Positions 2,485 to 31,779 of a stretch of DNA of 64,000 bases are shown one piece after another (position 1 is the first letter of the stretch; each line of letters begins with the position of its first letter). The translations under genes were made by a program, and so were the position numbers. Where the stretch lies: the IMG/VR virus record IMGVR_UViG_3300050821_008818, positions 7,364 to 71,363 of that record, one strand, 5' to 3'. The notes under the pieces were generated by a model. That model had not been told where the DNA came from. It saw only the letters and a program-made list of their open reading frames with translations, and ran no database searches. The stretch is from a virus.

Positions 2485-4899
2485 TTATGTTGGGCATAAC
2501 GCAGGACTCGGAATGCTCGATCCGCCAGAATTAACGGCAGTTACCGTAGCGTGAATGGTATGTCCAACGTCGGTTGATTGTAATGTATAGGTCGATGCCG
2601 TCGCCCCGGTGATGGCAATGCTAGTGTCATCCCAAAACCACTGATATGTGAATGAAGTGGGATTGCCTGACCAGGTTCCATTCGACACCGATAAGGCATT
2701 ACCGACGATTAAAGTTCCGGTAATCACCGGAGGCGCGCTATTAACCGGAATTGTAACTGCAGCAGTCACCTTTCTGCAAGATGGAGGCGGCGGGGGAGCG
2801 ACGCCCGCTGTTCCATTTGGCTGATTGACGCTGCCTCCATTGGGCAGCACGGCTTGCCACAGTGAGCCGTTCCAAGTGAACGGCATAAAAGAACATGTGT
2901 TTGGAAGAACGCCCGGATCAACAGCCTGATTCGTATTGGAAGGCCAATGAAACGTGTTTGTCGAGGTTGCGGTCTGGCAGATGATAAACCCTAGAGACTG
3001 ACCAGTCACCGTCCCATTCGCGATAGTCGGACTAGGCGAGCTTCCCGCACTTAAGCTAAAGAATTGTTCTTTGCCGTTTGCTGGATTGAAAGCTGGGTTA
3101 ATCGTCGGTGGGACGGTGAAGATCCCTTCCGCCGAGTCGGCAAATATGTTCCCGCTGCTTACGATCGGTATGGGAGGAAGGTTGTTATAATAAACCTCGC
3201 CTGCCAATGGCGGCCCCGCGCTTGGTGTGCCAGTTATGGTGCACGTGGATGCCTGGTTGCAGAAAAACTTCGTGATGGTGAATTGCTTGCCAGCCGCTGC
3301 GCCGGTACCTGTCAGGACTTCACCAATTTCTATGGACTGCGTTATGCCGGATGAGAACGGAACCGATAAACTCGTTGCGGTCGGTGCAGGACTTGCAGCT
3401 ACGATGTAGGTAATTTGGTTGTAGTGGTTCGTTATGCCGCCAATCCCTGACGTCACATTAAACACGTTATTTGTAAACGTTTGGTTTGGCGTCCACCATG
3501 AGCCACCAGTGATGGTCTCATAATTGGCACTCAGCGCTGGGTTGCAATTGAATGTGTTACCAGTGTAAACCTGGGTCTCGGCAAATAACTGGCACTCCCC
3601 CGTAAATGTGGCACCAGTAAAATTGGCAATCTTTATTCCGGTGCCCTGAATCAAATTTTGATAGGTACCTCCATTAACATTAAGTGTTGGGATGATCTTA
3701 TCAAACTCCGAATAGCCATCACCTCGAGAATCAAGCTGGTAAGTTCCACCTGACAAATTGACGGTTTGAGTCTGGCCGGCAAAAATCCCCGTTGCGGTAA
3801 CGCCGGTCACCGTGATATTAAGGCCGCCTGAAATAGAGATCGTACCGCTAACTTGGCGAGCGGACGCATTCTGACTGCCCATCCAAGTGAGAAATGTCCC
3901 GCCCATGAATGTGATATTATGGGCAAGATGCATGTTAGTCCGGTCGAGGTCCAACATGCGCGGCGCGCCTGTGGTCACTCCATATACCGGTGTCGCATCG
4001 AGCCAATCAGTTAGATAAGCGTATTTCAAAGGATTCTGGAGAGTCACCGCTCCAGTAGCGGCATTTATGGCCGTGACGGTGTTGAATTCGAAATACCGCG
4101 GATTAGGCGGATAGCTAGGGGTGCCTTGCGCATCAAAACCAAAGATTAGCACGTCATCACCAACATGAAAATTGCTGGTGTCCGTTGCCGTTATCATGGT
4201 AACCGACGAGGCACCTATGGCCGCAGTCTGTATAAGCTGGCCACTCGTATTCGTGGAGGGATCAAAGGGACCATCTCCAGCATTTGAGAAGAGGTCCCCA
4301 CCAAAGGACATAGCAGTGCCATCGATCTGATAGCCAGCATTCGAAGTCATGTTGATAAAACTGGCGCCGGTGGCGACAACATCAACGTTCGTGATGCCCT
4401 TCAGCCAGTGCGTCGAATTTAGGCAGTATGCCCCAGCTGGAACATTAAAGGTGTATTTTGTCGGATTCTTGGTGATCAGGAAATTGCGGGCGTTTATGAA
4501 AGCAGAAGTAGTATCAGTGCAGACCTGCGCCAGTCCATTGGTGACAGTCGTCAAGGGCGTGGTGGAAAGAATCGCGTTCCCCCCAGACACAGCTGTTATC
4601 GTGTAATGAGCCCCTAGCCCGTTGCCAAAAGATGAACCACCATTGTAGAGCGATACAACCTTCCCGACATCGGCGGCTACAAACTGGTGACTTGGCGATG
4701 AAAGGGTTGTTCCATTGTTCGAAACGTCGCTAAGTTGGATGGCATCAGCTATCGCGCCATAATCAGTCACAACGTTGATTGATGGCTGTGTTTGCGCCCA
4801 AGCGGGCGTGAACAGCGCCAGGCCGAGCACAAATCCAATGATACGAGCAATCAATTTCAGTCTCTTGGGGTAAAGAGTTTCAGGATAGCGATGACGCAT
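2485..4899 (-). CDS. exported right-handed beta-helix (pectate-lyase-fold) protein with C-terminal Ig-like domain; true start probably near 4854
   Basis: signal peptide ending LALFTPAWA; INVVTDYGAIAD and DTTSAF pectate_lyase_3-type motifs; C-terminal PVITG...GTWSG.PTSFTYQW...GATASTYTL Ig-like motif. Confidence 0.7.
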   Translation of the reverse strand: MRHRYPETLYPKRLKLIARIIGFVLGLALFTPAWAQTQPSINVVTDYGAIADAIQLSDVSNNGTTLSSPSHQFVAADVGKVVSLYNGGSSFGNGLGAHYTITAVSGGNAILSTTPLTTVTNGLAQVCTDTTSAFINARNFLITKNPTKYTFNVPAGAYCLNSTHWLKGITNVDVVATGASFINMTSNAGYQIDGTAMSFGGDLFSNAGDGPFDPSTNTSGQLIQTAAIGASSVTMITATDTSNFHVGDDVLIFGFDAQGTPSYPPNPRYFEFNTVTAINAATGAVTLQNPLKYAYLTDWLDATPVYGVTTGAPRMLDLDRTNMHLAHNITFMGGTFLTWMGSQNASARQVSGTISISGGLNITVTGVTATGIFAGQTQTVNLSGGTYQLDSRGDGYSEFDKIIPTLNVNGGTYQNLIQGTGIKIANFTGATFTGECQLFAETQVYTGNTFNCNPALSANYETITGGSWWTPNQTFTNNVFNVTSGIGGITNHYNQITYIVAASPAPTATSLSVPFSSGITQSIEIGEVLTGTGAAAGKQFTITKFFCNQASTCTITGTPSAGPPLAGEVYYNNLPPIPIVSSGNIFADSAEGIFTVPPTINPAFNPANGKEQFFSLSAGSSPSPTIANGTVTGQSLGFIICQTATSTNTFHWPSNTNQAVDPGVLPNTCSFMPFTWNGSLWQAVLPNGGSVNQPNGTAGVAPPPPPSCRKVTAAVTIPVNSAPPVITGTLIVGNALSVSNGTWSGNPTSFTYQWFWDDTSIAITGATASTYTLQSTDVGHTIHATVTAVNSGGSSIPSPALCPT

Positions 4900-4988: not shown

Positions 4989-6080
4989 TTACCCAGTTGC
5001 ATTATTTGCACTAACATAATTAACTACCGCTGGCACCGTGCTATACATCTGACCGGCAACACCATCGCCATACCAATTGTTGCCGATGTCTATCATGGTA
5101 TTAATCCACTTGCCGGCAGGCGGAACTCCAGCTACTATTCCGATATGAGCGAGATTAAAAATATTATTCGCTATGATAACGCCACCGAATGGGTTTGGCA
5201 CCGCACCAGCAGGCCAGAAACCAATGGCAGCCTGGGAGCATCCATCGATCGAATTCCACCCTATTTGCATCTGGCGAGTGTTGGCTCCAGCTTGGAGATT
5301 GCATAAAACCCCATATTGATGAGTGGCGATTTTGTTATTGAGAATGCTAATCGCACCGCCGCCGGTCCATTTAATTCCAATCGGACCTGTGAGGCTAGCC
5401 CCGAGAAGCACGCAATTAGAAATTACGCTATCGCCGGAATCTGGCCAGTCATGGTTCTCACAGACAAAGGCAGCTTGAGAATGGAAGAACGAATCAACAC
5501 GATCGATTACGAAAAATGCAGCCTTGGCAAGATGAATGCTGGTTGCCGCATTCGTAATTTGCATGTCCCTAAAAACTGAGCTACTGTTGCCGTATATCGA
5601 AGTGCCGCCCGTATTTGCACAGGTGACGCTAATTGCCTGTGTGCCCGCGGTGGCTGACGAGGCATAGGAAATAGCTAATTCACTCAGCTTGACAGGGTTT
5701 TGAGTATTAATATCAATCCCGTCTATGCCTACATCGGGCTGAAGAATTGTTGAACCGAAATCCCCATAGAAATGAAGAGACCCAATTATCTGAAGAGTTG
5801 AAGCTAGCCGATATTTTGCAGCTGGCGCATAACACCTTCCTATCCGACCGGATACAGCTTGGCCAAACATGGCCTGGAAGGCTGGCGCATCATCAGTTGT
5901 GCCGTCTGCTATAGCTCCGAAGTCCCGCACGTTAAGACATGATGGGCTTGAACTAGATGCGGGTGGCGTAACCGGTGGAGAGCTTGAACTAGATATACCG
6001 CTATCCACAAAATTCCCCGACGGGTCAACGGTGATAAAATTGCCGGGCTTAATGCCCTGAAGCGTAACAAATGCTGTCAA
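4989..6080 (-). CDS. pectate-lyase-fold beta-helix protein (tailspike/depolymerase-like)
   Basis: LNVRDFGAIADGTTDDAPAFQA motif followed by PbH1-like repeats. Confidence 0.75.
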   Translation of the reverse strand: MTAFVTLQGIKPGNFITVDPSGNFVDSGISSSSSPPVTPPASSSSPSCLNVRDFGAIADGTTDDAPAFQAMFGQAVSGRIGRCYAPAAKYRLASTLQIIGSLHFYGDFGSTILQPDVGIDGIDINTQNPVKLSELAISYASSATAGTQAISVTCANTGGTSIYGNSSSVFRDMQITNAATSIHLAKAAFFVIDRVDSFFHSQAAFVCENHDWPDSGDSVISNCVLLGASLTGPIGIKWTGGGAISILNNKIATHQYGVLCNLQAGANTRQMQIGWNSIDGCSQAAIGFWPAGAVPNPFGGVIIANNIFNLAHIGIVAGVPPAGKWINTMIDIGNNWYGDGVAGQMYSTVPAVVNYVSANNATG

Positions 6081-6716: not shown

Positions 6717-8015
6717 CGCAACCATCAGATCTGATAGCGCCCAGACAAGCGCATCGCAAGCATCTGGTGAGCCCGAGCCCAGAAAACCGGTGCTCGACAT
6801 CTGACACATCTGGTCCTCGAGCGAGGAAAGATCGCCGATATGCGAGACGCGGCCCTGTTCGTAGAGAGCGGCGACTGGTTCTGCTCGGGCGATCTTTCCT
6901 CTAGAGGCTATAACTTCACGATAGGCTATATTCGAATCCGCGGTGCGTATCGTATGCTCTACAAGAGCACCGCCAAAATTACGTTCCGCGATAAGACGAT
7001 CAGCGCGAAACTCATGGTAAGCATCACAGGCCATTCTAGCCCAGCCAGCGGGCGAAAGCTTGCATGATCGATCAGCAAGTACGTAGCCACGCCCATCTGT
7101 GCCCAGAGCAGCAACAACAATACCGATAGCGTCAGCAGCTTCGTCATCCATACTCCTTGCGCCGCTGGGATCCACAGCTACAACGACGCGCTGCATTCCT
7201 GGCAGTGTTACCTTGCGGCGAGCTATGTCAATAGTATCACGCGTCCATAATGCGCCGGGAACATCGTCTAAAATCTCAGCATTTAGCTCCTGCCGGCCTA
7301 GGCGGGTGCCGTCGTACCGCTTCACAACTTGCGAGAAAAAGCTTGGCGCCAAATTCGCCTTGTTTTGGATCGTCGAGCCGCGCGTCGTAACAGTGGAAGA
7401 ATCTACGAGAATGCGTTTTAGTATAGGAATTGGTCTAGGCGTTGTTGCGACTATTTGCCGCGGATGTTTTCCCAGTCTTAGTCCGAATTGAAGCTGGTCC
7501 CATGTAGCTTCAGCGTATTGCCATTTAGCCAGCTCGTCGCACCACGCAAGTCCGTGTTGAGGGCCTCTAAGCTGATCCGGCTCCGTTGCATTAAAGAGTG
7601 TAGCTCTGGCTCCATTTGGCCAAGTGAGGCGTCGCTTACTCGGTTCATATTGAGGTCGAAATGATTTAGGGTGGACTGAAAGGATTCCAGACTCTCCCTC
7701 AACGCAGACATCTCGTGCATCAGCCGCTGTTTCTGCGACAATCGCAATGTGTCCATATTCGGTTCCTTCGAGTGGAGTAGGTCCGCATACCAGCTGGCGA
7801 ACTGCTTCGGCGGCCGCTCTAGTCTTACCGAATCCTCGTCCGGCCAGCAACAGCCAAGTGAGCCAATCACCGGGCGGCAGAAGCTGATTGGGCCTGGCGT
7901 AGAAGGACCAGTCGTATTTTAGCTGCTCGGCCTGGTCTTCAGTCAGAAGTGAGAGTATAGCTTCTCGCTTCGCAGCGGGTAGCTGCGTCAGAGATTCGAG
8001 CAGAGAAAGTGTCAA
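6687..8015 (-). CDS. terL: terminase large subunit
   Basis: Walker A AGRGFGKT, Walker B AWCDE, TTP coupling motif, nuclease VAVDPS and PDACDA. Confidence 0.95.
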   Translation of the reverse strand: MTLSLLESLTQLPAAKREAILSLLTEDQAEQLKYDWSFYARPNQLLPPGDWLTWLLLAGRGFGKTRAAAEAVRQLVCGPTPLEGTEYGHIAIVAETAADARDVCVEGESGILSVHPKSFRPQYEPSKRRLTWPNGARATLFNATEPDQLRGPQHGLAWCDELAKWQYAEATWDQLQFGLRLGKHPRQIVATTPRPIPILKRILVDSSTVTTRGSTIQNKANLAPSFFSQVVKRYDGTRLGRQELNAEILDDVPGALWTRDTIDIARRKVTLPGMQRVVVAVDPSGARSMDDEAADAIGIVVAALGTDGRGYVLADRSCKLSPAGWARMACDAYHEFRADRLIAERNFGGALVEHTIRTADSNIAYREVIASRGKIARAEPVAALYEQGRVSHIGDLSSLEDQMCQMSSTGFLGSGSPDACDALVWALSDLMVAVYAPQFVFA

Positions 8016-8016
8016 A

Positions 8017-8364
8017 ATGAACCCAGCCAGGGATATAGGTTACACTACCATAAAAGGCGCCTTCGGTCTTCCTATTGGTGTAAACTTTCTGCAGCGCGAA
8101 AGCGGTGCGCTTCCAAAGTTCGTAACCATTTCTACGGTCTGTCTAGAAAATGGCCACCTAGAGGATCCGCTTGGTATCTGCGAGCCGGAACACGGATATG
8201 AAACTATGGTGTTCCTCGAGGACTGTACATTCTTCGCCTTGCACACTGCTAAATACAAAACTCGCAAGGCCGCCAAGGCCGGGCATGAAACTATCGTGCA
8301 AAAAATCCTTTCCGGAGAATTGCCTCTGGCAATTCAGATAGGCCACTATCACGCTTGGGATTAA
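8017..8364 (+). CDS. hypothetical protein, antisense between terS and terL
   Basis: 115 aa; ISTV...YETMVF...AKAGHETIV resembles a common small phage family. Confidence 0.5.
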   Translation: MNPARDIGYTTIKGAFGLPIGVNFLQRESGALPKFVTISTVCLENGHLEDPLGICEPEHGYETMVFLEDCTFFALHTAKYKTRKAAKAGHETIVQKILSGELPLAIQIGHYHAWD

Positions 8365-22221: not shown

Positions 22222-22342
22222 CTCCAAAATCCCCTGTGTCAAGTTGCGGGCATGGAAAACGCAACTCAGCAACCCCCGGAAGACGACGACGGTGACCTAT
22301 GGATTTCATTGTCTGAGGTAACCGTTTTGATTTTCAAGAAGG

Positions 22343-22504
22343 CTAGCGGCGAGCGCGAGTTACCGCATTCGCCGAAACCAAGGACTTATTGGAAACGTAC
22401 CTTCGATAGCCGGCATCCCCGATCAGCCAGACAGTGGCGATGGCGACGCCGATAGGACAAAAGTCGTGGAAGCTATGAGCCCAGTTTAGAAAAGCTTCTG
22501 CCAT
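22343..22504 (-). CDS. 53-aa hydrophobic peptide at the cro position
   Basis: AAGGGGGG RBS; MAEAFLNWAHSFHDFCPIGVAIATVWLIGDAGYRR... Confidence 0.45.
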   Translation of the reverse strand: MAEAFLNWAHSFHDFCPIGVAIATVWLIGDAGYRRYVSNKSLVSANAVTRARR

Positions 22505-22532
22505 GTGAACCCCCCTTAAAAGGATTGTGATA

Positions 22533-22560
22533 AAAGTACTACGGTTTTAACCCATGTCAA
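22533..22560 (-). promoter_or_regulatory. PR-like early promoter
   Basis: TTGACA-N16-TACTTT divergent from cI. Confidence 0.6.
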
Positions 22561-22572
22561 GAAATATTAAAG

Positions 22573-22601
22573 TTGGCCGCCAACATGACACGCCGTAAAT
22601 T
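22573..22601 (+). promoter_or_regulatory. PRM-like promoter giving a leaderless cI mRNA
   Basis: TTGGCC-N17-TAAATT ends 5 nt before the cI ATG. Confidence 0.55.
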
Positions 22602-22606
22602 GCGTC

Positions 22607-23053
22607 ATGGATGAAGAATCGGAATTAACTCGCAAGGCTGAGGAAATAGGAGAGCGCATACGCACGTTTATGCGCCATAAGGGTATGACTCAGGAGCAGC
22701 TAGGCGCAGCTCTAGGATTAACCGCCAATGCTGTGGCTCAAATTTTAAGCGGAAAGGGAACCGTCCAATGGGCCAAATTGTCCAACTTTGCGGACGTGCT
22801 CGGGGTTGAGCCTAACGATATTTTAGGCTTCCCTCCACGAGGCCGGGATTTGCTTATGGGTGCTGTGGAGGGCATGCTGCTCGCCCTAAATTATTCTCAC
22901 GTTGAGGCGTCTGAAATCGCGTTAATTGTTCTAAGAGTGTTAGACACACCCTCAGGCGCTCATCTAGACACTGCGTCTCCCAAGCATACTGGGAAAGTAA
23001 TTTCTGAATTTTTAATTCGGCAATACGTCGATGCAAAACGGCGGCAGACGTGA
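22607..23053 (+). CDS. CI-like XRE repressor (no S24 peptidase domain visible)
   Basis: IGERIR...GMTQEQLGAALGLT.NAVAQI..G...LADVLGV. Confidence 0.8.
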   Translation: MDEESELTRKAEEIGERIRTFMRHKGMTQEQLGAALGLTANAVAQILSGKGTVQWAKLSNFADVLGVEPNDILGFPPRGRDLLMGAVEGMLLALNYSHVEASEIALIVLRVLDTPSGAHLDTASPKHTGKVISEFLIRQYVDAKRRQT

Positions 23054-23213
23054 CACGCACGTGCATGTTGCTTTTGCTCCAAAACGTCACCCCGATCCGG
23101 GTATGACGACATTACGCGCAGATGACACATGTGTGTCATTTTAAAAAGTGACAAATTTGTTAGGGTCACCTAGCTAAGCCAAAGATCGTTAACTGTCACC
23201 TTTAAAATTGTTG

Positions 23214-23241
23214 TTGCCAAATAATTTTTTTGGGGTATAAC
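23214..23241 (+). promoter_or_regulatory. PL-like early promoter
   Basis: TTGCCA-N16-TATAAC; TGACA/TGTCA half-sites upstream, including palindrome ATGACACATGTGTGTCAT near 23122. Confidence 0.6.
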
Positions 23242-23270
23242 GTCTCCGTCACTCAGATGGAGAACGTACT

Positions 23271-23594
23271 GTGCGTACTGAAACAGAGCGACGCATCCTA
23301 GCAACAATCGAGGCACGTGCCCGCGCCGTGGCAATCGATAACGTCAAGCGACGTGCTCGGCATTACGCCCTCTACCCTTCCAGCCTTGAAAGCATAAAGC
23401 CCGGACTCTCGCTACTGCGTCCGCGCGGAATCGTCAACCAACTTCAGAGTATCACCGAGGTCGAATTGCCGATTGAGCGCTACTTCGGTTTCGGCGGAGA
23501 AATCCGCGCGGTCAATCGCAGGGGTGCGATGCTTTATGCGCGTTTTTCACGGCTCCTTGCTCACAAGGCGCGCAAGATAGCCAAGGTCGCGTGA
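23271..23594 (+). CDS. hypothetical protein
   Basis: GGAG RBS, GTG start. Confidence 0.6.
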   Translation: MRTETERRILATIEARARAVAIDNVKRRARHYALYPSSLESIKPGLSLLRPRGIVNQLQSITEVELPIERYFGFGGEIRAVNRRGAMLYARFSRLLAHKARKIAKVA

Positions 23595-23782
23595 TGAACA
23601 AATTCCGTGTGCTTCGAAACGGAAAGTTCGTTCGAGAAATCGAAGCAGAAAATCTTGCGGAAGCTCAGAAAAAAGCCCCCCGCTTAATTGATGGACGTAG
23701 AGGTAAGGACGGCCATTGGATGGCATATGAGTGGCAAAAGCTCGAAGGCAGCAAGGGATGGATTTGGATAGGAAGTAGATGA
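23591..23782 (+). CDS. hypothetical protein
   Basis: overlaps upstream stop; its TGA starts repeat 1. Confidence 0.6.
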   Translation: MMNKFRVLRNGKFVREIEAENLAEAQKKAPRLIDGRRGKDGHWMAYEWQKLEGSKGWIWIGSR

Positions 23783-23849
23783 CGTTTCGGCCTGCCGCTA
23801 CTAGCCCGGCGGCAGTACGAAGCACCATGCTTCAGAAAGTAGGGATACT

Positions 23850-24200
23850 ATGAGTGCTATTACACAACTAACTTTAGCTGCTTTATTGGCTTCAACTATC
23901 ACCGCATCTGCTTGTCAGATTGAGGTCGTAGACAATGCTGCCTTTGGCTGGGTCCGCTCGCGTCCAAACCTATATGCGAATCAGTTGTGGAAACTTGGCG
24001 CTGGCGTGAAGGTCGTCTACTGCGGCCGGTCAGCAATAGACGATCGCAACATCGAATGGCGGTGGATTGCCTTTGCTTATGCTCAAGAGCAATGGCCGCA
24101 TAAGGGCTGGGTTTCGGCTCGCATTCTTTCGCCAGACGTTCCCGTAATCACACGGCGCGCGCCTCCGCAGGATCCTTCTTTTGAGGAAGGTGGCGAGTAG
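23850..24200 (+). CDS. exported SH3b-like protein
   Basis: signal peptide; VRSRP...L..G.KV...W..I...GWVSARIL. Confidence 0.65.
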   Translation: MSAITQLTLAALLASTITASACQIEVVDNAAFGWVRSRPNLYANQLWKLGAGVKVVYCGRSAIDDRNIEWRWIAFAYAQEQWPHKGWVSARILSPDVPVITRRAPPQDPSFEEGGE

Positions 24201-24338
24201 CACAAATGACGTTTCGGCCTGCCGCCGCGGTGCTGAGGCGGCAGTGCGAAGCGCCCGTGATGGAGTGAGGAAATGCGTGGATAGCGGGATTGGCGACGCC
24301 CACGACGCTTTTTACTAGCAACTCAGAAAAGAGGAAAA

Positions 24339-24653
24339 ATGACCATTCGTATAATAGCATTTGTTTTAGTAGTCACGGCAATGTTTGCCTTCGGAATGAC
24401 TGCGCACGCTCATGGATGGGGCGGCGGGGGCGGTGGCTGGCATGGCGGTGGTGGAGGCTGGCACGGCGGCGGAGGCTGGCATGGTGGTGGAGGCGGCTGG
24501 CATGGCGGCGGAGGCTGGCATGGTGGTGGAGGCGGCTGGCATGGCGGCCATGGTTGGCATGGCGGAGGCTGGCATGGTGGCGGAGCCTGGCACGGCAGCA
24601 GCTGCTGGTATTGGGACGAATATGAAGGAGAATGGCGGCGTCGCTGCTATTGA
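24339..24653 (+). CDS. exported Gly/Trp/His-repeat peptide
   Basis: GAGG RBS; signal peptide ending AHA; (GGGWH)n; terminal Cys pair. Confidence 0.75.
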   Translation: MTIRIIAFVLVVTAMFAFGMTAHAHGWGGGGGGWHGGGGGWHGGGGWHGGGGGWHGGGGWHGGGGGWHGGHGWHGGGWHGGGAWHGSSCWYWDEYEGEWRRRCY

Positions 24654-24773
24654 CGTTTCGGCCTGTCGCCTCGAGCGGCAGAGCGAAGCGCCAGAAATGG
24701 AGCCGAGGCCCCGTCAATGCGCGGATGAAAGTCGGGAACGGCCCGCGCCGCTTCACTAACAAAGGAGTGTACA

Positions 24774-24953
24774 TTGACTAAGGAAGATATGATCCAACAG
24801 CTACCATCGCATGGACGCTGGCGGAGCTACTTAAGGAACTGGACAAACGCCTATGGCGATACGAATGGCTGGGATGGACATATCATGTCTATCTGGCCGG
24901 ACTTCTGGCGGCGCTGCCACAAGGCCAGCCCGAGGAAACTTTCAAAGGCGTGA
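24774..24953 (+). CDS. 59-aa hypothetical protein between repeats 3 and 4
   Basis: AAGGAG RBS, TTG start; MTKEDMIQQLPSHGRW...LSKA; TGA starts repeat 4. Confidence 0.55.
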   Translation: MTKEDMIQQLPSHGRWRSYLRNWTNAYGDTNGWDGHIMSIWPDFWRRCHKASPRKLSKA

Positions 24954-25164
24954 CGTTTCGGCCTGTCGCCTAGCCATTTGGCGGCAGTGCGAAGCGCCAG
25001 AAATGGAGCCGCCCGCAAGGGAGCCCGGTTTCGCCGCGCCGCGGATCGGTTAGCGGCGACGCTTCGTGAAGCGCCAGAAAATGGAGCAGGTGCTGCAGGT
25101 CGCTCCTGCACAATGCGCGGATGATCGCCCGCGACGCTTCACTATAAGCCATGATGGGTGGAAA

Positions 25165-25356
25165 ATGAGCCACAACGATTTCAGCGAAACGGAAATCAAA
25201 CGGATCGAATCCGCGCTCCTTGATGCTTTAGAGGAGATTGGCTTTAGCTCGGAAGATTTCATGCTTGATGAAATGCGGGTGCTGGCCATGGCTGCAATCC
25301 AAGCGGTTACGATGGAGTGCGGACGCTGCGATCCCGGGTTGTATAGCAATGACTGA
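25165..25356 (+). CDS. hypothetical protein
   Basis: start reassigned to MSHNDF downstream of the repeats. Confidence 0.5.
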   Translation: MSHNDFSETEIKRIESALLDALEEIGFSSEDFMLDEMRVLAMAAIQAVTMECGRCDPGLYSND

Positions 25357-25576
25357 TGCTGAACGGGTTATGATACTGCTCACGGCAATCCGTTGCATTC
25401 TATCGTTGGATGATCAGAAGGACGTGCTTCGTTTGAAACTTATCAAGTCCGTACTTTTCGAGGCGGTGCAACAGTGCGCGCGCGGCCATTTTGGGAACGA
25501 CTGGAATGCTGGCAACCCTATTTGCACTTTAATACGCGCAATCGAAGAAGAGGTTGCTATGAGGGAGGTGGTTTAA
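25349..25576 (+). CDS. hypothetical protein
   Basis: MTDAERV start overlaps upstream stop. Confidence 0.5.
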   Translation: MTDAERVMILLTAIRCILSLDDQKDVLRLKLIKSVLFEAVQQCARGHFGNDWNAGNPICTLIRAIEEEVAMREVV

Positions 25577-25776
25577 TGAAATTTAGATTCACATTTTTTA
25601 CCATAACCGCCTGCCTAGGGATACTTGTCGGATACCTTTGGGGCTATCACGATGGCGACAAACACGCAGCCTGCTGGCACTCAGATCTCGAGTCGTTCCA
25701 AATGCAGGAAATACCGGCCCCTGGAACTGATCCATTCCCTAAAGGTCCTGACATAGAAAGGGGTGACCCATTGTGA
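25576..25776 (+). CDS. single-TM small protein
   Basis: GGAGG RBS, TAATG coupling. Confidence 0.55.
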   Translation: MKFRFTFFTITACLGILVGYLWGYHDGDKHAACWHSDLESFQMQEIPAPGTDPFPKGPDIERGDPL

Positions 25777-26429
25777 TCACTTCACAAGAGACTGGCGAAA
25801 TCGCCGCCGCAATGGCGAAAGCCCAAGAGAAAATCGAGAACCCAACAAAACACAAGACAGCAAAAGTCAGGAGCGATAAGGGCAATTACGATTACATGTA
25901 CACCGATCTTGCGGCCGGTCTAGAGTGTATTCGCCCCGTGCTATCAGCCCAATCAATCGCCGTGTTCCAGGTCCCAACGACTGACCGAAATGGCAATATA
26001 ATTTTGTTAACGCGGCTTATTCATTCGTCAGGACAATGGGTTGAGGGCGAATATTTCGTCTGCAAGACCGGTGATCTGCTTACGAAAGAAGGTACCGTAG
26101 ATCACCAGAAAAGAGGATCCGCCCTAACCTACGCAAGGCGCCATTCATTATTTGCAATTGTCGGCATTGCTGGCGCTGATGACGATGATGATGGGAAGAG
26201 CGCTAGCATTAGCAGCAATGGTGATCGGGTGCAACGCATTGAGAGCCAACTTGTATCTAATGATCAGGCAAAACTAATCCGTGATAAGATAGCTGCAGCC
26301 GGCGCAGACGTGGCGAAGTTTCTTGCGTTTTTCAAAGTGGATTCGGTTGTAAATCTTCGATCCAGCCAGTTCCGCGAGGCCATGACTTTGCTCAGCGCTA
26401 AGAAAATTTCGGCGAAGGAGGCGCCATGA
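25773..26429 (+). CDS. ERF-family single-strand annealing protein
   Basis: Y.YTDL; TRLIHSSGQW; GSALTYARRHSLFAIVGIAGADDDDG. Confidence 0.9.
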   Translation: MITSQETGEIAAAMAKAQEKIENPTKHKTAKVRSDKGNYDYMYTDLAAGLECIRPVLSAQSIAVFQVPTTDRNGNIILLTRLIHSSGQWVEGEYFVCKTGDLLTKEGTVDHQKRGSALTYARRHSLFAIVGIAGADDDDDGKSASISSNGDRVQRIESQLVSNDQAKLIRDKIAAAGADVAKFLAFFKVDSVVNLRSSQFREAMTLLSAKKISAKEAP

Positions 26430-31398: not shown

Positions 31399-31779
31399 AT
31401 GAAATCACCTTGGGGTGTTCAAATGAACATTGATGTTGCTAGCGATATTCTCGCGCTAGAGCGGCGCATCGTCGCGCTTGAAAAATGGAAGGAATGTCGT
31501 TTCGATGAAATAGAGGAGCGCATCGCCGCGCTTGAGGATAGATTCGATAAAACGGCCATTGAATTTGCTAATCGCATCGCCGCGCTTGAGGATCATGTCG
31601 AAACGATTGATGCAAAATTGGAGTCCCTGATTCTAAAAACAACATCGACTGAGTGGGGACGGAAGATAGAAGAGCGCATCGACGCGCTTGAGATGAAGGT
31701 AGCTAATGAATGGGCCGCGGCCATTGTCATGAAAGATTTTGAAGGACGCATCGCCGAACTAGAGGGCAGGGAGGCGTAA
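31399..31779 (+). CDS. coiled-coil repeat protein
   Basis: five RI.ALE-type repeats encoded by CGCATCG.CGCGCTTGA-like units. Confidence 0.65.
   Translation: MKSPWGVQMNIDVASDILALERRIVALEKWKECRFDEIEERIAALEDRFDKTAIEFANRIAALEDHVETIDAKLESLILKTTSTEWGRKIEERIDALEMKVANEWAAAIVMKDFEGRIAELEGREA

Follow-up and report, generated by a model that had tools for sequence, protein, structure and literature searches.

What does a short, repeated intergenic element do in the early operon of an uncultured phage, and does it do so as RNA? The question arises in the window, that is the whole stretch of 64,000 nucleotides analyzed here, which derives from a 71-kb IMG/VR record and is contained in sequencing runs labelled soil metagenomes. 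The region in question is a lambdoid-style early operon that lies between a Cro/CI-type HTH gene and the ERF and YqaJ recombination genes. From 23780 to 25165, intergenic units lie between small plus-strand genes, and every unit opens with TGACGTTTCGGCCTG, the TGA of which is the preceding ORF's stop codon at 23780, 24651 and 24951. The first part of a unit is a hairpin that we call M1, and the second part is a structured element that we call module 2. The original prediction had placed copies of the latter at about 24261-24316, 24698-24757 and 25082-25143, with a degenerate one at 25004-25066. A covariance model (R1), built from an alignment of 46 hand-checked copies (A2), matches at all four places and finds exactly these four copies in the window, with no further match up to E=1. 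The places therefore stand, whereas the 5' limit had to be moved, as the module begins 13 nt further 5', at GAAGCGCC. The features of the units, with P1, P2 and P4 denoting helices of module 2 described below, are:

23780..23823, plus strand: M1 hairpin of unit 0, detected as find_repeats family D7 and by folding; opens with the UGA stop of ORF 23591-23782
23819..23833, plus strand: minimal module 2 of unit 0, consisting of the P1 hairpin alone (GAAGC-ACCAU-GCUUC), 16 nt 5' of ATG 23850; seen by reading the sequence, with no R1 score
24207..24253, plus strand: M1 hairpin of unit 1; in-frame UGA two codons past the true TAG stop of ORF 23850-24200
24248..24313, plus strand: module 2 copy 1 (cmsearch 41.2 bits, E 3.4e-9), followed by ATG 24339
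24651..24690, plus strand: M1 hairpin of unit 2, with the UGA that terminates ORF 24339-24653
24685..24756, plus strand: module 2 copy 2 (cmsearch 63.9 bits); TTG start 24774 lies 17 nt 3' of the module
24951..24996, plus strand: M1 hairpin of unit 3, with the UGA that terminates ORF 24774-24953
24991..25067, plus strand: module 2 copy 3a, degenerate (cmsearch 38.3 bits); P1 and P2 kept, AAUG and P4 sequence replaced
25068..25142, plus strand: module 2 copy 3b (cmsearch 67.0 bits), in tandem with 3a and without an M1 of its own; P2 loop GAAAA; followed by ATG 25165
23850-24200, 24339-24653, 24774-24953 and 25165-25356, plus strand: four small cassette genes served by the units, without Pfam or PHROG family

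A repeat search of the window recovered the start of M1 four times (family D7: 23780, 24207, 24651 and 24951) and the end of M1 together with the start of the module three times (family D8). The motif GCGAAGCRCC occurs 3 times where 0.49 occurrences are expected, a count reached by 0 of 100 shuffles. The 11-mer AATGCGYGGAT alone, with one mismatch allowed, stays within chance (3 found; 78 of 100 shuffles reach 3), and single-sequence folding of the units gives weak z-scores of -1.1 to -1.6. Because of these last two results the window by itself is suggestive rather than conclusive, and the evidence therefore comes from its relatives.

Among these relatives (loci are given L numbers), R1 yields 59 matches at E<1e-6, 58 of them distinct, in 41 sources that are all metagenomic, with up to four copies per locus, the majority of them between genes. 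Scanning viral contigs with a pattern yielded 61 stretches, nine of which proved on inspection to contain true copies while the others were chance matches in coding sequence; an exact 18-mer scan of metagenomes returned 69 stretches, and a 3'-anchored pattern added two contigs. As 47 of the 58 copies came via a pattern that fixes the 5' core, the apparent conservation of this core is inflated; GCC-AG(N)AA-UGG is still kept in most of the 11 pattern-independent copies. A scan with a 3'-anchored 14-mer, designed to lessen this ascertainment bias, gave one new real copy (L381) among the matches listed. Searches of cultured phages and plasmids gave no match for the 1.6-kb region and, for a 70-nt copy, only partial matches at E of 2 or more. 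No real copy was present among at least 120 stretches listed for a degenerate 17-mer over genome contigs. No host emerged from pattern searches of sampled genomes: those of 401 genomes of the phylum Acidobacteriota produced one chance match, in the centre genome itself, and those of 401 genomes of the class Alphaproteobacteria produced matches in seven, all without P4 and inside apparent coding regions, with at least five sharing a conserved flank. The bearers of module 2 are a group of uncultured soil phages.

Aligning the 58 distinct copies bears out the proposal of conserved junction nucleotides with varying loops: the core is conserved and the variable parts are unalignable. The core reads GAAGCG-CC-A-GNRA-U-GG-AG(C)-(variable, 7-48 nt)-AAUG-CGCGG-AU...GC-CCGCG-A-CGCUUC-AC and forms three helices, namely P1 (GAAGCG:CGCUUC), the mini-hairpin P2 (CCA-GNRA-UGG) and P4 (CGCGG:CCGCG). 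A variable arm follows P2, after which a conserved AAUG leads into the P4 hairpin; the junction strands are AG(C), AAUG and A. The 14 pairs of P1, P2 and P4 are paired in 98.4% of 804 cells, compared with 30-50% for slid controls. Changes on both sides occur at 6 pairs versus 0.9 in shuffles, and 0 of 500 shuffles reach 6. P4 is the main carrier of this covariation, with compensatory changes at four of its five pairs (in window copy 1, which also has a GUGA loop in P2 and the 3' strand CGCUUU, P4 is CGUGG:CCACG). P1 is paired in 99.1% of cells and contains two doubly changed pairs, both from a single copy (L016:4269-4327, CGAGCG...CGCUCG). The covariation rests on few sequences because the stem sequences are almost invariant. 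For P2, covariation is absent among the aligned copies, and the support comes from loop variation of the GNRA type: GAAA in 53 copies, and GUAA, GCAA, GUGA and GAAAA in one each. In L357:614-709 and L381 the P2 loop is exchanged for longer inserts with CCAG...UGG retained; the insert in L381 (near 8230-8355) is roughly 45 nt long and holds CAGAAAUG-type hairpins.

Which helix closes the module? The original prediction had paired TGGAGC with a downstream GCTTCA to enclose a three-way junction. Such a helix is possible (96.0% paired), but it shows 0 double changes, cannot coexist with P2 and loses its end pairs in 5 and 6 copies, respectively. Rather, the best-supported closing helix is P1, and UGGAGC:GCUUCA is probably an alternative conformer. 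The three-way junction survives for some copies but not in general, as hairpin formation by the variable segment is unreliable; indeed, we rejected a constant hairpin in the variable arm (mean z -0.42 over 46 copies, with 13 of the 46 below -1). A three-way junction with UGGAGC:GCUUCA is best seen as the conformer to be expected from modeling while M1 is closed.

Two further candidates were rejected. A pseudoknot between the variable arm and the P4 loop gave duplex energies no better than those of shuffled loops (48 copies, p=0.97; 17 long-loop copies, p=0.49), and only the lengths of the two elements are anticorrelated (rho -0.44). A leader peptide or coding module does not keep its frame, with AUG-to-AUG distances modulo 3 distributed 16/16/14. 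Separately, we noticed that the variable arm contains CUAG in 15 of 46 copies, mostly as the palindrome (U)CCUAGG (for example L016:5473-5539, L305:2739-2810 and L311:614-682), which is possibly a loop-loop or dimerization motif.

The upstream half of the unit proved equally regular. A two-tier M1 hairpin is present in 35 of 38 copies (mean z -3.2), with a lower stem of 5-7 bp (CYUUCG:CGAAG(CG)), a 2x2 internal loop and an upper stem of 7-13 bp that is highly diverse in sequence. The M1 of unit 0 displays this two-tier architecture with the lower stem CGUUUC:GAAGC(A), a 2x2 internal loop and the upper stem CCUGCCGC:GCGGCAG (-28.4 kcal/mol, z -3.24). The first paired base of M1 lies directly 3' of the preceding gene's stop codon. 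In 23 of 33 copies the UGA of M1 terminates, in frame, an ORF that is 40 or more codons long, compared with 13 of 66 control frames; the other 10 end no long ORF, and in several of these a same-frame stop occurs a few codons upstream.

Because one and the same GAAG(CG) strand serves both P1 and the M1 lower stem, the two helices are mutually exclusive. This shared strand and the start of M1 at the upstream stop codon, both of which had escaped the original prediction, together suggest a conformational switch. In nearest-neighbor ensembles (n=35), the predicted probabilities with M1 attached are 0.13 for P1, 0.23 for the UGGAGC:GCUUCA helix and 0.36 for P2; for an RNA that starts at G1 and thus lacks M1 they are 0.68, 0.05 and 0.56, respectively. 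The probability that the SD is unpaired rises from 0.40 with M1 to 0.53 without it (n=25, Wilcoxon p=0.001), a modest effect that is large in about 6 of the 25 copies. Window copies 1 and 2 have a low predicted P1 probability even without M1 (0.10 and 0.07).

The position of the module relative to genes points in the same direction as its name in the earlier work, which had it placed just before RBSs. Among the 57 copies with enough flanking sequence, 37 are followed within 80 nt on the 3' side by an SD together with the beginning of an ORF that spans 40 codons or more, at a median distance of 20 nt, versus 5 of 57 in the antisense control, upholding the proposed placement; the remaining 20 have no SD and ORF within 80 nt. 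The modules have the same orientation as the genes, and the spacer between module and start codon is 44% A and 11% U. A scan of 22300-25800 detected no promoter-like sequence on the plus strand, and the window units lack any terminator-like site. The copies without M1 include tandem second copies (window 3b, L011 and L026). When five M1-less copies picked by eye were scanned for promoters, L011 displayed TTGACA-17-CATATT (10 of 12 matches), ending 6 nt 5' of G1, and L329 a promoter-like site 13 nt 5' of G1; L305 and L344 gave none. L344 and L357:932 are preceded by a terminator-like hairpin instead of M1.

Several neighboring elements deserve mention in their own right. In L348, a tRNA gene (8014-8085) lies immediately 5' of an M1-module unit. 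A third conserved element (...AUAUGCGGACA.CGC...GCACUGCUAGCCGCG.UGC.GCGG) lies 3' or 5' of module 2 at places without a gene (L065 after 2209, L313 after 98, and upstream of L304:1627-1704). At gene-less junctions (L016 near 5040-5068, L320 near 3430-3460 and L301 near 6857-6909), module 2 precedes (UAGA)GCGRAACGAUCA, which in turn precedes the UGACGUUUCGG of the next M1; here CGAAACG can pair with CGUUUCG, forming one more competing helix.

Taken as a two-part intergenic unit with M1 as its upstream half and module 2 as its downstream half, this arrangement leads us to favor, tentatively, the reading that module 2 acts in cis within the leader, as a switch or insulator by which the expression of shuffled early-gene cassettes is coupled or stabilized. 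With M1 closed, P1 would be open and CGCUUCA would pair instead with UGGAGC or with the SD; once the M1 lower stem opens, P1 would form together with the GNRA hairpin. We infer the direction and the effect of the switch as follows. At termination, the ribosome extends over about 12 nt beyond the A-site codon on the 3' side. Since the pairing of M1 begins right at the stop codon, a ribosome terminating at the UGA would have to unwind the M1 lower stem, and the next leader would thereby be switched to its P1 form. Transcripts that start at the module, for example after promoters, would take the P1 form directly. This form, as a base-paired 5' end or an insulating fold that frees the RBS, may then stabilize or activate the downstream gene whatever cassette lies upstream. 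The proposed mechanism resembles translational coupling of coat and replicase in MS2, where the ribosome opens a long-range RNA pairing: in both, a ribosome would free a helix-held strand near the region that it translates and alter initiation downstream. Unlike the MS2 pairing, the units described here are portable, repeated and common to unrelated genes and phages, and their effect on initiation is a prediction.

Some of our own results speak against a leader switch. Plain strand exchange needs no conserved junction, GNRA loop or P4. The predicted effect on the SD is modest, P1 is weakly predicted in window copies 1 and 2, and hairpin-only forms occur at the same genes. Moreover, there are M1 UGAs that end no long ORF, copies without an SD and ORF, and M1-less copies without a promoter (L305 and L344).

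A rival explanation invokes RNA processing. Hairpins cut by RNase III have a stem of about two helical turns, often with an internal loop. In phage T7, the polycistronic early transcript contains RNase III sites, which are internal-loop hairpins between genes, and M1 is like them in being a repeated intergenic hairpin with an internal loop just before RBSs. M1 could be an endonuclease site of the RNase III type, or module 2 could be a self-cleaving ribozyme or an RNase P-type substrate, with a cut just 5' of G1 that would yield monocistronic mRNAs starting with P1 and upstream mRNAs ending in the upper hairpin of M1. We consider this unlikely, for reasons that have to be set against some appealing points. 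The T7-like shape, two stems around an internal loop, recurs in 35 of 38 copies, and the copies next to promoters start at or near G1, so that cleavage would yield the same 5' end. Small size, a conserved junction core, tandem copies and a phage context are together a signature of small ribozymes; module 2 shares all of these (its tandem copies being window 3a/3b, L011 and L026), as well as the multi-stem junction, the variable arms and the length of 60-120 nt, and the two bases that follow P1 are AC in 44 of the 58 copies. By contrast, no sequence likeness to the T7 sites was seen, and those sites lack an attached junction module. The stems of module 2 are conserved in sequence, unlike those of known ribozymes, and minimal hairpin-only variants occur. 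The only RNA-library trace of the locus, a single identical 241-nt contig (24887-25127) from one metatranscriptome run, crosses the M1/module border and is uncut across 24990/24991; this counts weakly against cleavage, as the contig may be DNA carry-over and is uninformative on ends, strand and level.

Comparison with catalogued RNAs points the same way. Rfam 15 gave 0 matches at gathering thresholds in the whole window, and in 16 related loci (138,256 bases) it gave only two tRNA genes, neither of which overlaps a module. When E was relaxed to 10 for 23700-25250, only Prion_pknot, gyrA (13.6 bits) and Xoo8 (12.4 bits) appeared, far below their thresholds. At this cut-off there was no match to any ribozyme or tRNA model, including those for the twister, twister-sister, pistol, hatchet and HDV-like ribozymes, which Rfam contains. 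Nor was there one to a hammerhead, in which three stems surround the core CUGANGA ... GAAA ... UH; CUGANGA is absent from the junction, and the original prediction had likewise not matched the module to a hammerhead. ARAGORN found 0 tRNA genes in the window, and the Rfam tRNA model matched no module. We also rejected a metabolite riboswitch, since the downstream genes encode diverse small proteins without Pfam or PHROG families rather than the members of one pathway.

A trans-acting factor might instead read the module. HK022 put and lambda nut boxB are small structured antitermination RNAs that lie early in phage operons, where a site shortly 3' of an early promoter lets RNA polymerase pass terminators, and the boxB loop is GNRA-like. 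By analogy, module 2 could be a binding platform for a phage antiterminator or RNA polymerase in the manner of nut or put, or for an RNA-binding regulator that recognizes the invariant core containing GGAG/GGAU, a proposal to which we assign a low probability. It would account for stems and a junction that are near-invariant across phages with unrelated flanking genes, for a GNRA hairpin as in boxB-type sites, and for the copies that directly follow promoters or terminator-like hairpins (L344 and L357:932). Yet nut and put sites occur once per operon, whereas here several copies of a different architecture are found per operon, each linked to a stop-codon hairpin. The GNRA loop also varies (GUAA, GCAA and GUGA), unlike a loop that is read in its sequence. 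M1 lacks a U tract and is thus not an intrinsic terminator. Neither a terminator nor a cognate protein was identified, and no protein family or candidate partner is common to most loci: the widest family, present in 11 of 41 sources, is a small cassette gene.

The genes served by the units are indeed varied. The two commonest downstream families are small proteins found in 11 and 8 of the 41 sources. The former (MTQFHEGQEVEV...WRKAKIV...FPDGSRAVFDAEHIR) comprises 21 ORFs without Pfam or PHROG match (for example in L348, 8237-8485, L351 and L065), which are frequently tandem paralogues and frequently the first gene 3' of module 2. In the window, 24339-24653 encodes a 104-aa protein with a signal-peptide-like N-terminus that consists almost entirely of G(n)WH repeats, seen as 7 repeat copies in the DNA; this gene accounts for the weak Prion_pknot matches in Rfam and has an 88-aa homologue in L047. 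Elsewhere in the window, a 34-nt direct repeat (...CGCATCGCCGCGCTTGAGGA..., family D3) occurs in five copies spaced 54-102 nt apart at 31452-31767, probably inside a coding region.

A comparison with L047, a close relative with the same gene order, shows how these genes come and go. L047 contains two genes that are absent from the window, each with units on either side, such that whole genes are gained or lost exactly at module borders. Minimal hairpin-only forms occur at the same genes, namely in unit 0, in L047, where GAAGCGCC-UA-GCUUC takes the place of window copy 1, and in one DNA variant. L047 also carries a deletion derivative in which the 5' half of an M1 is joined to the 3' end of a module. 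Between L047 and the window, orthologous modules are wholly different in their variable parts, beside an adjacent gene that is closely alike by eye. In a soil DNA run, a variant joins 24255 to 24336 via 18 other letters, and further joins at conserved cores are present in DNA runs.

These observations recall the PeSL elements of T4-type phages, which Comeau and colleagues reportedly described in 2014 as mobile regulatory cassettes. They raise the prospect that the units are DNA-level linkers, that is repeats at cassette borders that promote homologous recombination as PeSL do, with the RNA fold incidental or generic. The gene differences at module borders between the window and L047, the M1-to-module deletions in L047, the soil DNA variants joined at conserved cores, and the divergence of variable parts even between orthologous copies beside look-alike genes would all fit. 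So would the accessible text of Arbiol et al. 2010, according to which PeSL cassettes drive shuffling (PMC2839356). As described there, PeSL are likewise short regulatory repeats beside small non-essential ORFs without known function in plastic early regions, and close phages differ at the repeats by insertion, deletion and replacement. By contrast, that text describes a PeSL as a sigma-70 promoter plus a terminator stem-loop (PMC2839356), while the units here consist of a multi-helix RNA core, a GNRA loop and a competitor hairpin linked to the stop codon; a promoter-terminator cassette of the PeSL type was rejected, as the window units contain neither a sigma-70 promoter nor a terminator. A mere DNA linker would also leave unexplained the bias in strand and in position relative to genes, the restriction of loop variation to GNRA, the compensatory changes, and the G-U pairs, which the opposite strand would render as A-C. 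Recombination may, in turn, result from the repeats rather than be their function. We regard a chiefly DNA-level role as improbable.

The leader switch or insulator that we prefer would add an element to what has been described for phages, as far as the literature is accessible. No known motif catalogue in the accessible text describes module 2; the 15-nt core was not found in the papers searched, and the 11-mer appeared only in unrelated papers. Fremin et al. 2023 list 10,006 unnamed RNA candidates predicted in viral sequences (PMC10690425). Its main text, as accessible, does not describe module 2, and its candidate lists are in supplements outside our comparison (PMC10690425). The proposal of an undescribed cis-regulatory RNA is supported in part: strand specificity, the position before SDs and starts, GNRA-type loop variation, compensatory pairs and the lack of an Rfam 15 match speak for it, and its novelty is subject to those supplementary lists. 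Of the mechanisms named in the original prediction, a put-like antiterminator, a protein-binding site and a ribozyme, we favor none.

It is conceivable, if rather doubtful, that M1 and module 2 together represent a new class of portable RNA device, either a termination-sensing switch that would signal to the next cassette that its upstream neighbor is under translation, or a self-cleaving or nuclease-guiding insulator that gives each cassette one defined mRNA 5' end. If true, such a device would parallel, in nature, the ribozyme insulators or bicistronic designs of synthetic biology, to which it may add a natural insulator part. If upheld, our preferred reading would establish an uncatalogued and fairly widespread family of structured RNAs, whose compact fold of a GNRA hairpin and a conserved junction could be probed for catalysis or factor binding. 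For phage evolution, it would constitute a second case, this one based on RNA, of mobile regulatory cassettes akin to PeSL. It would also account for the way in which phages maintain the expression of unrelated accessory genes, once these have been acquired, within a polycistronic early operon: each cassette would carry a standard leader that always folds alike and is tied to the end of the preceding gene.
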